Assembly: GCA_965113315.1 (NCBI GenBank)
Contig: OZ220364.1
DNA: 64,000 bases
From: Podarcis vaucheri
Lineage: Eukaryota
Strand: one strand, 5' to 3'
This document shows positions 12,818 through 53,687 of the stretch, piece by piece. The notes under the pieces are model-generated. The model saw only the letters and a list, made by a program, of their open reading frames with translations, made no database searches and was not told the origin of the DNA. Numbering within the stretch: position 1 is the first letter of the stretch; each line of letters starts with the position of its first letter. A program made the position numbers and the translations under genes.

Positions 12818-13809
12818 GTCTATGGCAATTTAAATATGTGTGTGTGGGAATGTTATTAAGATTCCTCTCCCCCCGTTATTGTTTTATTGTCTTTTATTAT
12901 TATGCAATGCAAATTCTGTTTTTAATGTTGTACACCGCCCTGGGATCTTCGGATAAAGGGCGGTATATAATTTTAATAATAATAATTGGAGCGGGTTCAC
13001 TGAAGCCCACTCAGATCCACAGCCCGCACATTTCGGTGCTTCAAGCCTACACCCCCCCACCGAAGCAAGGAAGGCGGCGAACACGTGTTTGAGAGCGGGC
13101 GCGCGCCCGGCTCAGCCAATGGGGGAGCTGCATTGGGGCGCCCGCTCCGAGCTGAGGCGACCGACGCCCGGCGGCAAACCGGGATTTCGCGACCGTTTGC
13201 GAAATGGCGCCCTCTTCTTCTTCTGTTTACCCCGCTCCCCTTTCTCTCTAACCTGGGATTGGGAAGTTTGGGGGGGGGGGAGGCAGAAACCCTCGCGTTG
13301 TAGAGCTTGGGGAGTCGAAATTATAGCGTTGGTGCGCCTCCTCACAGCCTGAGGAGGGGGAAGGAGGAAGCCCCCTCCTGCAGCGCCCTCTCAACGGCAG
13401 TCTCGACGGTTAATCTGCCCCCCCCCCATTTTCCTGTCGAGCGCGCGCGCGCGCGCCGTTTCTCCTTTTCTCTCACCCGCCGGGGGGGGGTGCGGGTGGA
13501 TAGGGGGGGGAATAGGAGTAGGGGGGAAATAAAGGCGCGACTTTCCGGCCTCCTTGGCACACGCCCGGAGCTGCTGGGTCTCTTTCCCGGCCAGGCAGCT
13601 GCTCCCACCTCCTCCTCCCCCCCGCGCCTGTGGCGGCCCTTCCCCGCCTCGCGCAGCCCTCCGGGCCGCCTGCCAGCCGAGCCGAGCCTCCTCCCTCTCC
13701 CCGCCCGTCCCCCTCCCCGTGTGTGTGTGTCGAAAGGGACTGACGGAAAGATGGCCCCTCCTTCCCGCTCCCTCTCCCCGCCTCCCCCGCCAAAGACGAG
13801 GCCGAGCTG

Positions 13810-13820
13810 GTGTTTTTCCA
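13810..13820 (-). promoter_or_regulatory. TonE/ORE (NFAT5/TonEBP site)
   Basis: Minus strand TGGAAAAACAC matches TGGAAANNYNY, ~75 nt upstream of the TATA box. The mammalian TauT promoter is known to have a proximal TonE at about -110. Confidence 0.75.
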
Positions 13821-13891
13821 CTCAGCAGGATGGGTGATGCTCGGCGCTCGCTCATTAGACAACAGACACGAGAGGTCAGGAAGAAAGCGCT

Positions 13892-13897
13892 TATAAA
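13892..13897 (+). promoter_or_regulatory. TATA box
   Basis: gcgctTATAAAtta embedded in GC-rich sequence; Inr-like TTAGTCC at 13924-13930. Confidence 0.75.
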
Positions 13898-13919
13898 TTA
13901 CCGTTTCCTCCCTCGCAGC

Positions 13920-14022
13920 CCTGTTAGTCCGCCTTGGCACTCTCCCCGGGACACACGGGACAGACCCACGGGCAGCTAAGGCGCTGGACAGATACCTGGT
14001 CAGAGGGGTGCCGCTGCTACAG
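13920..14022 (+). other. SLC6A6: Candidate non-coding first exon of SLC6A6
   Basis: Starts ~30 nt after TATA; possible donor CAG|gtaccc at 14023 (alternative CTG|gtcaga at 13999); 3' boundary uncertain. Confidence 0.45.
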
Positions 14023-17000
14023 GTACCCGAGGCTCTTTTCCGAGGGATTTTTGATATAGATATATATTATTACATATATATTGGGAGAGCAAAGGCACAC
14101 AGGGAAGGACCTGAGCCCATCCTTCGCGGCTCTGCTTTCTCTCTGTCGGTGGCTCCCTTTTCTTCCTTTCTTCCTCGCTCTCCTTCCCTCTCTTTTCCGC
14201 TCTCCCTCGTAGCGCTTAGGAACAAAGGGAGTCGGCATATGGATCGCCTCTTGTCATTTACTGGAAAACGGGGAGCTACTCTGAAGAAAAGAAACGCTTC
14301 TTCCTCTTTCTAAGGGGCATCCCTCAGCCAAGGTGGGAAGCAAGAAATCCTGGCATCAGGGGGTGGGGGATTTTTTTGGCCAGGTTTCACCGTAGGCTGA
14401 GAAGCCCACCCACCTACCTTCCCTTATCCGACCCCCACCCCTTTCCCCCTTCCTTAGAGATTTGTATTTGTCCTTTGCTATTTACTTTTAGGATGCATTG
14501 CTTCTGTGCTTTTTTTTTGAGAGCGAGCGAGTGAGCGAGCGCATGGCGGTTTTCCTTTTGTCTGGTGCCCCCCCCATTAAAACGTGCATGCATGTGCACC
14601 TTTCTGGTTTGGCTGTATGGGGTCTCTCAGCAGTTACCTCTCTTCGCCGCCGCCGCCCTCCGACACCTTGTGTTAACTTTTAAATAACAGATAGCAGCTA
14701 AATGGAATTGTCTGCTGGTGCGGCTAACGCTTTCCTCCTAGTTTTAGTGCGTTTTCTGCCTTTGTATGTGTGGTGAGCATGTGCTTGGCCCTCCTCACTC
14801 CCTTCCACTTCTGTGCAGTGTGCGATTAAATTATATTTAAGCAGCGCTGTTCTCTGCATCACAGCTACTAAAAATCTACCAGAAAAGGCAAGCGTTAGCA
14901 TTGCTACACGATTGGTGTTAGTACATCTTTAACTGGACTGCAGTTGCCCTCTTGTGCACTCGTTCATTCATTTTTTGGGGGTTTGGAGTGGTGAAAGGAA
15001 AGGGATTGTGATACTCTTAGAAAGTTTGCTGGCAAGAACCGAATCTCCAGCACACTTCAGTGTCAATAAAGTGATTCTGGATTTCCACCGCTGTTCCTGG
15101 GATCAGAAGGCAGCACTAAGGTGATGAATATTCATCTGTGTGTGTGATCGTTTAACAAAAGGGAAGGATACAGACTTTTGAGGCAGCACCATCTAAATTT
15201 CCATATAAGAGCATGAGGAGGAAGGCACTTTGCATACGTGTAAGGATCAGCAGATGGCCAATTGAGGATATGCTTCTCTTTTTATACTGTTTTGTTTAGA
15301 GGAGAACAAAGTGTTCGTTACCTATACAACCTGTGTTTTACCAAGGTGAATGCCTGAACTAGACATTCTTATTACTGCTGCTGCCTAATGCTGAATGCTT
15401 TTGGGAGAAAAGACCATTATCTTTCATACAGACCTTATTTCTAAGTATGCATTCTTTAAGCTTACTGTCTTTAGTGTTCTAAAAATAAGTAATATATACT
15501 GCGAAATGAAGAGCCAGGTGTGATGGTGAAGAAACAGAGCTGCCTGTTTTGAAATCTTGAACGTCCTTGTAGCTCTTCCCAATGTGGATATAGAGCTTTG
15601 CTTATTCTTTTTTAAACATTCATAGTGACTAATTTTTAACCGTATCAGGAAAGGCATTAAGAAAGTGTGCCAAGAAAAGTCAGTTGTGCTTAATGGGCTC
15701 TTTTGGTATCCACTGTACTTTCTTGTTCCTCTGTGTTAAAGACTGTCTTAAGGGTTGGGCTGAAAGAACCAAATAGGTTTGTCATGTTAACAGGCTATGT
15801 AATTTGGAGTTGCTGCTGGCTAAGATTTTGAAATCTCTTATTTTTTAAAAGGATATTTTGTTTTTAGTGAATGAGCTTATTAAAAACGTGGGGTTATTCA
15901 TACACAGTGTTTGAGGGGAGGGAAATATAGCCCAGTCTAGGCCAGACCTCTGTGTCCTTGGCAAATGATTTTGTATGTCTAGATTTATATTTGAATAAAC
16001 AAATAATCTCTCTAGCACCATTTGACTTTGGAATGTGGTGGGAATATTTTCCTGGAAGACATTGCTTGGAAACTGATCTTTTACAGTAGGGATGGATTTT
16101 ACTTTGTACCGGAGATGAGCTAGTCATCTACTGTAATAACAATGTCATTTACTTAAGGCTTCAAATGCTGAAGGTGAACGTACTGTTCAGAGGGGGAAAT
16201 TATATGTTTGCTGTGGTGGTCTGTTTCTCTCTGTTTTCAATTTTACCTCTTTCTCCTTTAATCTTCCCAATATTGATCTCTCTTCTTTTTTAAATCTGTC
16301 ACTCCCTTTTGCTTTTCACCCTCTGCCCTCCAGTCACCTTCTACCCTCCCCCCAAGGTCTTTCATTTTCCTTTCCCACTTTCCTCTGCACTAATCTCTTT
16401 ATAGCACTGGCACCCAAGAATGACATAACCTTTGGCAGCCTGCAAAAGCAAGTGTGGCAAATAACATCCCATCCTGTAGGGGGCGGTATGTGAGATTGGA
16501 CCAGCAAAGACATTGTTACAGAATGGTAATGGGTGGGGGGAATAGGTTGTTGCTTTCCCCCCTGGGCTATATCATGGATGGGCTCCAGTATGCAAACTTA
16601 GACAGAATTATCTTCAGAAATCTCTTAATTGCATTGGATAGAACTGTGTAATTCCAGGATGAGGCCTATAGAATATTAGAGAATTAGTAAGTGAACAAAT
16701 GGCCGGAAGTCTTGGTCTTTGAGCTGATCATAAAATGAGCAGCTTTGGTTAAAGAGATATAAGCAGGAGATTTTGGTATAAAGCTGAAGCAACTCTCCGA
16801 AGGCTAATTTAAAGTGGAGTAACTGAGTGCAATGTGATGATATCATTTAGGTATTGTTTTTTTGCCATGATGGAATAAAATATCATTAGAATTTCTTCTG
16901 TTCCTCTTTTCTTATGGGAAGGGGAGAATGGACTGAGACATAAGAGTCTGATAACTGATTAATGGGGGAAATGAAGAAATGCCTGATGAGAATACTAAAA

Positions 17001-37338: not shown

Positions 37339-39254
37339 GAAAAGGGTGGTGGATGATAGATCTCGAATACATTTGGGGCTTTGGAGTAGGCAGAGGTAGG
37401 CAAGATGTTCAGCAGGCAAGATTAAGGTGGACATTCACATACCTGCCCCAAAGAGGAAATTCCTCACTATAAAAGAGGGCACTGATTCACCTATGCTAAT
37501 TTATATGGGTAGACGGAAATTTCAGAATAGTGACAGAGCTCAACCTCAAGAGGAAGGGGATGTCTCATGCCACACACTGAACTCTGATTCAGATGAAAGC
37601 TATTGTAGGACATATATTTCTTCTACTTGTTGCCTCAGTTATACAAAGCCATGACCTATTACTTTCTATAATATCTCTACTTTAAAGTTGTTCAAAAATT
37701 CAAATGTATTGAATAAAGTGAAACTAATCTTTGAAGAGGACCATTGCAAATGAGAGGTTCCAATTTGCTGTTCTCCATATCTACTAGTGTAGCTATAATT
37801 ATACATACTTAATTACTGGTTAAGATTCAGTGTCTAATATGTCAGCCTGCCAGCTCTTATTCTGTAACATCATCGTTCCCATACTAAAGCAACCCTTTGA
37901 AACAAGTTGGCTAGACATGTTAATTGACAATCTGTTACCTGGCATTCAGTGTTGCATATGGTCTGTTTAGGCACACTTGAAAAGATTAGATTAAAATGGC
38001 TCCAATAAACTTTTTCCAGATAATAGCATCATGAAAAGCAAATATATTTCCCCTCCAAACCTTATTAAAAATTTTTTATGAGAGTGTCTTATTGTTGGTT
38101 GTAAGCAAGACCTGAGGCAGTAAGGCAAGTTCCATTGTTTCCCTCCAGATATGGTTTAGCTAATCTGCATGGTTTATGAAAAGGTTTTCATCTGCATGGT
38201 TACATTGATGCATATCAATCTCAGAATCATGTTCCAGTTGCAGATTTCATGCCAAACTAATGCCAACCCTAGTTTCAGGTCATTGCCATGCAAGCTAAAT
38301 CTGTTTACAGATCAGAAAGCAGCAAATTAATTCCAGGTTTTCACTGTGATAATATGAACTAAGTTTTTGTGGTGACACTTGCACAAACAAATAAAAACAT
38401 TGTTGAAGTCTTAAATAAATGAACTGCTTTGCATAAGCCCAATAAAAACTTAAGTGTTTTCACTAATAAAGCACCATGTAAAATACAAACAGATCTGCAG
38501 TGCAGTCCTATGCACATTTACTCGGAAGTAAGTCCTATTGTGTCCAGCATGATCTATTTAGATGGTTTAAGCCCGAGGTATTAATGTCTTCTATCATGAA
38601 TGTTAGGTTTAAGTGTTTACTAGCTATATCTCTTTCTATCAGTGTTATATTTTAAACTTTCTAGATTTAAATCATTGCCCTCATCCAGCAGTCATCTTCT
38701 GCATGTTGGTAGGATTATTTGCATGTGTTGATTCCAATGTAGGATCATCAAGCAAGCTTAAAAAATGATGGAAAGTCCATTATGTGCCTTTCCATTCACA
38801 CAACCCGGTACAGAATAACTCTCCAATTGGAGGAAAAATAAGCCATGTGACACAGATACGAAGACTGGATTAGATTGACTGCCCTTCTAATATATAAGAG
38901 CACAAGTATGCAGAAATGAGGACAACCTAGGCTGCCTATGCGTGCCTGGTCTCTGCAATGAATGGAAGTTTACTTTAGCGCTCCAGTGTAAATGGCATAC
39001 CTCCCACAGCTTCCACATTTGAATCTGATAAAATGTGGCCTGTTTTGAACATGCACTTTGGATGAAATCTTGTGCGTGTTTATCTTCCATTTTTAAAAAT
39101 CTAACATATATAACACAAGTATGTGTGTGTACGCATGTGCCCCTGGATATATATATATATATATATATATTTGCTTTCGTAGATTTTCACGGGTACAGGA
39201 ATGCAGGTTTTGGTGTCTTCGGGTGTCTTCCCGTGTAAGAGTCGGGGTGTCTGT

Positions 39255-39292
39255 GCGACGTTTCGACGAGGTCTCACTCGTCATCTTCAGGC
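39255..39292 (-). ncRNA. Minimal hammerhead ribozyme motif, antisense mirror copy
   Basis: Exact reverse complement of 39346-39383. Confidence 0.6.
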
Positions 39293-39345
39293 TGGTGCTT
39301 TCGGCTTCTTGTTACTGGAACAGTAACAAGAAGCCGAAAGCACCA

Positions 39346-39383
39346 GCCTGAAGATGACGAGTGAGACCTCGTCGAAACGTCGC
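39346..39383 (+). ncRNA. Minimal hammerhead ribozyme motif, sense to the SLC6A6 pre-mRNA
   Basis: GC-CTGAAGA-T-GACGAG(TGAGAC)CTCGTC-GAAA-CGTC^GC; GUC triplet ending at 39381; stem I only 2 bp. Confidence 0.65.
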
Positions 39384-41008
39384 ACAGACACCCCGACTCT
39401 TACACGGGAAGACACCCGAAGACACCAAAACCATATATATATATATATATATGGCATACTTTTTGCAATTTAACAGTTGACAGCAATATTTATAAGCCAG
39501 TGTGACCGTCTAGGGTTCACTTTGCTCTGGAGTTTTCATAAAGCAAGCCTTGTCATTGGCTATTTCATTAACTAAAAAGCCATTGCTATGGCAAAGAACA
39601 TGATTCTATTGCGTATCAGGAGTGAGTCAGTCCTATTTACTTTGAAATCCAAGTGAGATGCTGAGATGGCAGTGAAATGAGGCGGGGGTGTATGCCGAAA
39701 CTGAACTGAACAGAAAGGTTTATTTATGCAGGGGTTTTGTTGTTTAATCAGTACCAAGATATAAAAATAGAAGAAGAAAGAAACTGCTGCTTTAGATCCT
39801 TCCGCTCATTAGGATAAATCACTATGTTTAAAGCGGGGGGCGGGGGATCACTTTTAATAGAAGCTCCATGATAACTCTTCGCAAAGCCTTAATATTTCAG
39901 CCGATGATGATTCTGGGGAGAAATTACAGGCTTGGAATGGACACTGGGTCAGTGCAAAGAAAAAGTAACATGGTGACGTAACAGAGGGCAGATTTTCTAC
40001 AGTGGTCCTCTCTCATTTACTAAGCTGATGTAAACATAAAGTCAGAGTGCGATCTGCTAGTTGCCTAAACAGGAGTTAAGCCTGTTGATAATCTCTTCAC
40101 AACTGTAGGTAAAGAGTACTTCAAAATCTGGGGTTGCACACCAGGAATGGCAAGGACGTTCAAGAGAATGCCCAGTGGCTGGGTGTGTGCTTGGCATCTC
40201 CAATGCAGAATACACTGCTCTTTTCCTCCTTGCTTCTTTCCTTACTTCTTCCCTCCCTCCCTCCCTCCTTAACACCTTCACTATTTCGCCATTCATCCCC
40301 AGGGCACACACTTCTGCCCTCTCCCTAGAAACTCTACCTGTCCTCTTAATTTTTTTATGCACACATTACCTATTCTGCACTCTTATACCTTAATCCACAG
40401 CCACTTTCCAAAGGAGCTTTAGGAAGAAGCCTGACAAGTGTTTGAGCCCCAGTCTGAAAGGTGGCTCTGAGAGGGAAAGGGAACAAAAGCATAGCAGTGT
40501 CAGTTCGCCTGTTTTTACAGGCCTGGCTCAGATGGACTTTTACATCTCTTCTGTGCAAAAAAAGGATCCATTTTATTTCCTGCTGGCCTGAAAAGGTGTC
40601 GCAATACATGGCAATGCTGCTTTTGTTTTTAATGCTCTGAGTAACAAAGATGCTTCCGCCTCTTCTCTAACACAAAGTATCTTACTAACACTGTGATTAG
40701 GATCCAAGGATTGTTTTTCCAGACTGCTCAGGAACCTGGAATGCTAACCTTCTATTGTGAAAAGACCCTTAATAGGTGTCAATGCGAAAGAGGCACAGGT
40801 GTATTTTAAACTCATTTGTGGGGTCAAGACAGGAATAACTGTCAGCTGCATCTTTCCTCTGCATATACTGGCTTGAAAAAGTGGGTGAATTTGAAGGAAA
40901 CTTTTTGTTTGCCAAGGTGATTTGTAAGCACAGGTACCTATTTGTCTTCCAAGTAACGTGGATTATAAAACCTATATTGTATTTTCCTTCCTTTTAGAAA
41001 GCAAAAAC

Positions 41009-41237
41009 ATGGCAACAAAGGAGAAACTGCAGTGTCTAAAAGATTTCCACAAGGACATTCTCAAACCTTCCCCTGGCAAGAGCCCTGGGACACGCCCTGA
41101 GGATGAGGCAGAGGGGAAGCCACCACAGCGTGAAAAGTGGGCCAGCAAGATTGACTTTCTGTTGTCTGTGGCTGGAGGATTTATTGGATTAGGCAATGTT
41201 TGGCGATTTCCGTATCTCTGCTACAAAAATGGCGGAG
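41009..41237 (+). CDS. SLC6A6: SLC6A6 coding exon 1 (codons 1-77); exon starts at 40998 with 11 nt of 5'UTR
   Basis: Acceptor ttttccttccttttag|aaagcaaaaacATGg (strong Kozak), donor GGAG|gtgagt; 229 coding nt, MATKEKLQ...CYKNGG. Confidence 0.98.
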
Positions 41238-53555: not shown

Positions 53556-53687
53556 NNNNNNNNNNNNNNNNNNNNNNNNNNNNNNNNNNNNNNNNNNNNN
53601 NNNNNNNNNNNNNNNNNNNNNNNNNNNNNNNNNNNNNNNNNNNNNNNNNNNNNNNNNNNNNNNNNNNNNNNNNNNNNNNNNNNNNNN
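53556..53687. other. Assembly gap (132 N), probably containing SLC6A6 coding exon 7
   Basis: Run of N. The expected TM7 exon (RDC..[28 protein letters not shown].DVAES) was not found by eye between 53448 and 56963. Confidence 0.85.

Follow-up and report, generated by a model that had tools for sequence, protein, structure and literature searches.

The window, a stretch of 64,000 nucleotides from Podarcis vaucheri, contains the first coding exon of SLC6A6 at positions 40998-41237 on the plus strand. Its start codon is located at 41009, and the translation of 41009-41236 matched the N-terminus of the taurine transporter (SLC6A6) with an E-value of 1e-48. A perfect hairpin lies upstream of this exon, with 1,566 nt (~1.57 kb) between the hairpin and the acceptor of the ATG exon, in agreement with the distance of about 1.6 kb given by an earlier, sequence-only reading of this DNA. 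Since the ATG is immediately preceded by an acceptor, and since a GC-rich island (13001-14500; GC 0.65 in 13001-14000) is likely to be the SLC6A6 promoter, the arrangement suggests that the hairpin likely sits in an intron, and hence in the pre-mRNA, of SLC6A6.

The two arms of the hairpin (39206-39317 and 39321-39432) are 112 nt long each, display 100% complementarity and are separated by a spacer of 3 nt. Tracts of (AT)n, corresponding to the target, flank the hairpin at 39147-39170 and at 39433-39452; the last four letters of the left tract are also compatible with the ORF of the parent element. Folding of the hairpin gave a minimum free energy of -244.7 kcal/mol with a z-score of -33.5, a value reached by none of 200 shuffled sequences, and the folded RNA was predicted to form a single long duplex. 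Comparison with an ORF-intact copy of the element (L051) allowed both arms to be assigned. The left arm, which is sense on the minus strand, consists of 27 nt of 5'UTR and of ORF nt 1-79, where it stops, and is followed on the same strand by a tail (39171-39205) that covers ORF nt 80-114. The right arm, on the plus strand, carries no tail and stops 3 nt before the usual inner end of the family. The junction (39318-39323) is composed of a 3-nt loop, which is element sequence of the left copy, and of 3 nt of microhomology common to both copies; it coincides with a natural 3-bp mini-hairpin of the parent element. The arms end 33 and 27 nt upstream of the hammerhead core and overlap by 3 nt. The inverted pLTR with a single tail, as described in the sequence-only reading, was thus recovered, together with the perfect arms, the short loop and the (AT)n surroundings. 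No further piece of the family was found in the rest of the window. A short dispersed repeat of a different kind (high depth, many loose ends) is present at 38487-38573, and positions 53556-53687 are a run of 132 N.

The region 39167-39323 (157 nt) is 100% identical to L051, including the whole arm, in which nine of nine CpGs are the same as in that copy. L051 is a partial tandem with a unit of 2,961 bp and an open ORF of 906 amino acids, the ATG of which lies inside the hammerhead core. The ORF displays the motifs DKG at 282, YVDD at 512 and GVY...YIG at 705. In another copy (L031), the ORF matched the reverse transcriptase domain RVT_1 above the cut-off (E 7e-15), while the GIY-YIG domain was detected with an E-value of 1e-3 and 19.6 bits, under the Pfam cut-off of 22.6. 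A single ORF with a reverse transcriptase followed by a C-terminal GIY-YIG endonuclease is the arrangement of endonuclease-bearing (EN+) Penelope-like elements (PLEs). A further mark of these elements is a CCHH motif whose two cysteines are located between GIY and YIG (PMC8557442); here a CxxC is present at 711-714 within the GIY-YIG motif, with H733 and H749 as candidate histidines chosen by eye. The structural marks described for EN+ PLEs, i.e. partial-tandem pLTRs, inverted copies and a one-sided tail of 30-40 bp (PMC8557442, PMC3846280), were found as the partial tandem of L051, the inverted copies and a one-sided tail in 45 of 51 junctions. A CX2-5CxxC finger in the linker between both domains is characteristic for Neptune and Nematis (PMC8557442), and no match to it was found in the 906-aa ORF, as in the Penelope/Poseidon clade. 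By its motifs, the element can be assigned to the Poseidon type. It is virtually certain that the hairpin is a PLE insertion, as had been proposed, and its arms can be read as copies of a young element of this family, covering its 5'UTR and the beginning of its ORF.

Each arm contains a minimal hammerhead core, as already pointed out, at 39257-39290 on the minus strand in the left arm and at 39348-39381 on the plus strand in the right arm. The latter has C3 at 39348 and C17 at 39381, contains the element ATG (39354-39356) and is predicted to be cleaved after 39381; the mirror copy runs from 39290 to 39257. The motif shares with the minimal hammerheads of metazoan PLEs the core, the extra unpaired nucleotide that separates position 9 from position 10.1, the G10.1-C11.1 pair, the palindromic 15.2-16.2 and the lack of helix III (PMC4209133). 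Pairs of such hammerheads on opposite strands and 100-700 bp apart were already known (PMC4209133). Stem I has 2 bp in each arm, instead of the expected 4-5 bp that are found in Schistosoma, and fits only the variant of Drosophila virilis; stem II has 6 bp, in comparison with 7-8 bp, or 6 bp in D. virilis (PMC4209133). The short stem I had been recognised as a weakness, and its pairing probability was indeed 0.01 even within a single arm. Stem II was predicted with a probability of 0.93 in a single arm and of 0 in the hairpin, for both strands and for nascent prefixes, as transcription of either strand begins with the antisense arm. The earlier proposal that the antisense arm is made first in the SLC6A6 direction holds for that strand, but not as a property of that direction, since both strands behave alike. 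The self-silencing of the ribozyme, which had been deduced from this order, is also predicted by the folding models, in which both ribozyme-like motifs are locked within the duplex. A scan with the Rfam covariance models, suggested in the earlier reading, gave no hammerhead family at E <= 10 for the window region or for a single L051 arm. Among microRNA families, the best score was 67 bits for a gathering threshold of 74, and these matches reflect the perfect hairpin only. Single minimal hammerheads were reported to show no cleavage (PMC4209133), and the hammerhead of an Anolis element required its own protein (PMC11167929). From the modelled structures, ribozyme activity at the locus is unlikely. 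The hammerhead is likely a passenger, and an intron transcribed through the insertion would be expected to give a long duplex serving as a substrate of ADAR rather than a ribozyme.

Copies of the family were counted genome-wide by sequence-pattern matching. The 34-nt hammerhead core gave 11,140 exact matches, whereas the same pattern written backwards gave none. With the 17 middle letters left free, 11,519 matches were obtained, so that 97% of the cores are unchanged. Intact CpGs, which had been taken as a sign of youth of this particular locus, are therefore a property of the family. The exact junction of the window was found at 46 places, and a loop-less palindromic junction located a few letters upstream at 189 places, which makes it the commonest junction counted; a single tail was present in 13 of the 15 loci fetched from these. 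The rarity implied by the first description is not compatible with these counts. One contig from a DNA run of a relative, organism F (X14), covers 38400-39134 and 39463-40356 and has 32 letters in place of 328 in the window. The insertion is absent from organism F. This empty site, together with the identity to L051, bears out the suggestion that the insertion is young: it is recent, strongly 5'-truncated and head-to-head. The same-species contigs (X3, X4, X5 and X7) end at the (AT)n and leave the right flank uncovered, and the word share for X3/X4 (0.88 vs 0.99) carries no weight as evidence on polymorphism. Two further data sets of organism F (X15 and X16, guessed to be RNA) cover both flanks, with no splice joint seen. 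Given the number of cores, the recurrence of the junction and the empty site in a relative, the locus is an ordinary one.

In order to describe how such hairpins arise, sister insertions were collected from the clusters behind the first 100 core matches on contig C1 and from 30 of 54 loci chosen by a tail-less end. From 62 head-to-head neighbours, 51 junctions were retained (19 of them selected for one tail-less end), and 11 were dropped because of inserts longer than 60 nt or a tandem duplicate. One tail was present in 45 junctions, two tails in three and none in three; in the unselected subset of C1, 28 of 32 had one tail. The arm ends lie at most 20 nt apart in 34 of the 51 junctions, for a permutation mean of 12, and in 7 of the 20 junctions in which both arms extend past the hot spot, for a mean of 1.0. 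Full arms end at two fixed sites of the element adjoining the (AT)n in 55 of 57 cases. Arms of the same insertion differ from each other at 11 of 9,102 bases, in comparison with 2,448 of 279,586 between insertions. As raw counts, the junctions display microhomology of 1-5 nt in 25 cases and inserts in 20.

The tail is carried by the shorter arm in 21 junctions and by the longer one in 15, with arms of equal length in nine. Of the 46 loci that share the junction of the window, 30 were fetched; among these, 10 carry the tail on the arm with the loop and 16 on the loop-free one, one has no tail, and in three the other arm is cut short. The excess on the shorter or the loop-free arm is not significant against an equal distribution (p 0.41 and 0.33, respectively), so that the argument draws on the occurrence of such tails and not on their excess. 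Five of these 30 loci display a variant on both arms and six on one arm only.

Of 102 arm ends, 27 lie in a zone 30-36 nt upstream of the core and three at 37-60 nt; this pile-up is located about 30 nt below a TATA-like motif. At several loci (G000:C1:3032326, 3032664 and 8228137 [L070, L042], L142 and L144), re-copying of the terminal 9-17 letters of the arm is seen at the junction, in some cases in several rounds with added T runs, which resembles the telomerase-like slipping and re-copying at a template end. Taken together, the pile-up, the TATA-like motif and the repeated re-copying of the last letters suggest that the zone at 30-36 nt is likely the 5' end of the RNA, i.e. the start of transcription.

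Edited and spliced insertions served as barcodes of single molecules. Runs of A>G changes were found in one of 114 stretches scanned, and two aimed edit patterns gave five and four matches, at six loci. The 5' neighbours of the A>G sites follow the order U (32/38), A (16/27), C (9/32) and G (8/53). The order U, A, C, G is the preference of ADAR. Two diverged copies at L031 were initially candidates for old copies, and were rejected as such, their divergence being A>G editing. Twin insertions with edited arms were present at two of the six loci, on C1 (L154, G000:C1:1583833-1586722) and on C38 (L159:3204-5533); L158, L160, L161 and L162 contain shorter edited pieces. The A>G edits are common to both arms at 48 of 48 sites for C38 and at 64 of 69 for C1, in comparison with 94 of 411 between other edited stretches. 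Each arm of the C38 copy contains a whole small hairpin insertion, with the tail on the shorter arm, and the C1 copy has its tail on the longer arm. In both of them, the A>G strand terminates in a sense pLTR. Discordant edited sites, which would indicate two independent passes of reverse transcription, amounted to 2/57 vs 1/251 and were not significant (p 0.09).

A third case is given by L138, in which both arms hold the same 25-nt piece joined at the acceptor of the element, upstream of the hammerhead. Elsewhere, this piece is matched only on C19, by an exon-like end after which a GT donor follows (source exon L146, G000:C19:49182165-49182189; exon-carrying loci L138/L147, G000:C26:38261854-38261906). 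As judged from these joints, the L138 arms represent a host exon end spliced to the acceptor of the element and copied from a spliced sense RNA. The source copy was sought through a rare variant, for which seven matches were found, none of them downstream of the C19 exon. L138 also illustrates that the family is able to capture exons and to be mobilised from transcripts of the host. As edits or a spliced exon are common to both arms and the edited strand has a sense pLTR at its end, these data indicate that one sense RNA templated both arms in the three cases (C38, C1 and L138). The evidence for a single molecule comes from these three insertions, and the copy of the window is not among them. 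Shared edits and variants show one template rather than the route of the double copying, and gene conversion would also lead to sharing. The edited copies suggest that ADAR-edited hairpin RNAs of the family entered the genome as new copies, which supports the ADAR idea at the level of the family.

The hairpin of the window is a recent 5'-truncated head-to-head PLE insertion in (AT)n, for which both nicked strands quite probably served as primers for the reverse transcription of a single sense RNA. The element protein, probably as a dimer, would nick both strands within the (AT)n. One 3'-OH would prime at the tail end (ORF nt ~114) and the second one at an inner site (nt ~82). Both cDNAs would stop at about the same point, which in this case lies close to the probable start of transcription (30-36 nt upstream of the core), and their 3' ends could then anneal by the 3-nt microhomology and be filled in. 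LINE-1 elements are known for twin priming, in which cDNA synthesis on a single RNA is primed by the two target strands and a microhomology-joined inversion is produced. There, the cDNAs copy different parts of the RNA, whereas the two starts proposed here lie about 30 nt apart and would yield copies of one and the same part, so that a complete inverted repeat is formed. The element PAc, a Poseidon of Anolis carolinensis, was shown in vitro to extend both target strands from two adjacent start sites (PMC11167929). From this and from the sister copies, twin priming on one RNA is considered probable.

The resemblance to PAc is one of shared features. In both, the ORF begins where hammerhead stem II starts, the tail lies between the two start sites, the targets are AT-rich and the reverse transcriptase is followed by GIY-YIG; the cleavage site is 26 nt after the start codon in PAc and is predicted at 28 nt here, and the outer end is found at ORF nt 111-118 and 113-114, respectively (PMC11167929). 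By analogy with PAc, the outer end of the tail would be the outer start site of reverse transcription (PMC11167929). The available text on PAc gives no account of inverted copies and leaves the later steps open (PMC11167929).

Extended to the PLE inverted repeats in general, the following account appears on balance probable: one sense RNA would be copied twice by strands priming at two adjacent start sites, so that a single event accounts for the tail on one side, the similar lengths of the arms and the inversion, with edited and spliced copies as barcodes that speak against antisense self-priming, and intronic hairpins such as the present one would be transcribed, edited and moved again. The origin of the tandem and inverted repeats of PLEs is stated as open in one source (PMC8557442), and is answered by hypothesis only in another (PMC3846280). 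The inverted pLTR insertions described there share with the present ones the 5' truncation, the inverted copy adjoining at the 5' end, the one-sided tail of 30-40 bp, the microsatellite targets and the palindromic junctions, but the tail was ascribed to resolution by the endonuclease, and antisense self-priming was given as the source of the inversion where one was proposed (PMC8557442, PMC3846280); the present data point instead to two cDNAs from one sense RNA.

A different route, in which a single target-primed cDNA folds back on microhomology and copies itself, and the endonuclease cuts the fold-back arm and thereby removes one tail, is improbable. The junction on the mini-hairpin of the parent, the proximity of the arm ends and the variants and edits shared by the arms would all fit with it. 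The position of the tail on the longer arm in the window and in the C1 edited copy does so as well; in the window copy it is found on the loop-bearing arm, so that this copy taken alone is compatible with fold-back too. A self-copy cannot gain a tail missing from its template, and the simple form of this route thus leaves some half of the informative cases unexplained, namely the tails on the shorter arm (21/36) and on the loop-free arm (16/26), to which the C38 edited copy is added. Moreover, any loop is missing from the junction with the highest count. This route could be rescued only if the tails of primed arms are excised as well.

Self-priming on an antisense transcript, published as a hypothesis for head-to-head palindromes and for intron retention (PMC3846280), is very unlikely here. 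Palindromic junctions are frequent in the family, and antisense stretches are transcribed, as they are edited. However, in the two edited twin insertions the A>G strand, which must correspond to the RNA, terminates with a pLTR in sense orientation, and L138 was copied from spliced sense RNA. The sense polarity of the template in these insertions argues against the antisense route, the counter-evidence being three cases only, all with chimeric templates.

Both perfect palindromes and (AT)n tracts show instability in DNA. An origin at the DNA level, either by a later inverted duplication of a single insertion or by gene conversion homogenising arms derived from two RNAs, could take advantage of this instability and would account for variants present on both arms (5/30 loci). 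We give it equally little credence, as the arm-specific variants (6/30) show that conversion is incomplete, and host repair would not yield outer ends at two fixed element sites adjoining (AT)n.

A functional ribozyme or regulatory hairpin of SLC6A6 is hardly credible: the core letters are intact and the position is probably intronic, ahead of the ATG exon, but the insertion is missing in organism F, the locus is one of thousands, stem II cannot form in the hairpin while stem I hardly pairs in a single arm, and the published cleavage data cited above (PMC4209133, PMC11167929) do not favour activity. A link of the hairpin to SLC6A6 function is thus unlikely. An assembly artefact by a mirrored read has a negligible probability, even though no same-species contig spanned the site, given the tail on one arm only, the different flanks, their colinearity with the empty site of organism F and the 45 other loci with the same junction, of which six of the 30 fetched carry arm-specific variants.

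The insertion of the window is carried as a passenger in what is probably an intron of SLC6A6, and may serve as a presence/absence marker. The interest lies in the test of the inversion at the level of the family, the locus itself being ordinary: thousands of near-identical young copies are available, and the edited and spliced ones allow the inversion question to be tested from sequence. Perfect hairpins are scattered in large number over the genome and have demonstrably been encountered by ADAR. Rearranged inverted copies of Penelope in Drosophila similarly yield double-stranded RNA and are sources of siRNA (PMC3681739), while the trace observed here consists of A>G hyper-editing that became fixed when new copies entered the genome. 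In the literature consulted, no report was found of twin priming or a one-RNA origin for PLE inversions, nor of genomic copies of hyper-edited retrotransposon RNA; subscription papers (e.g. the PLE papers of 2004-2006) and supplements may hold one.

Two minor observations were made among the sister insertions. At G000:C1:13590507 (L057), a foreign stretch of about 100 nt, GC-rich and UTR-like, is located between the arms. At L031, L055, L070 and L053, new copies often landed in the (AT)n flank of older ones, giving clusters that reach five arms or more.
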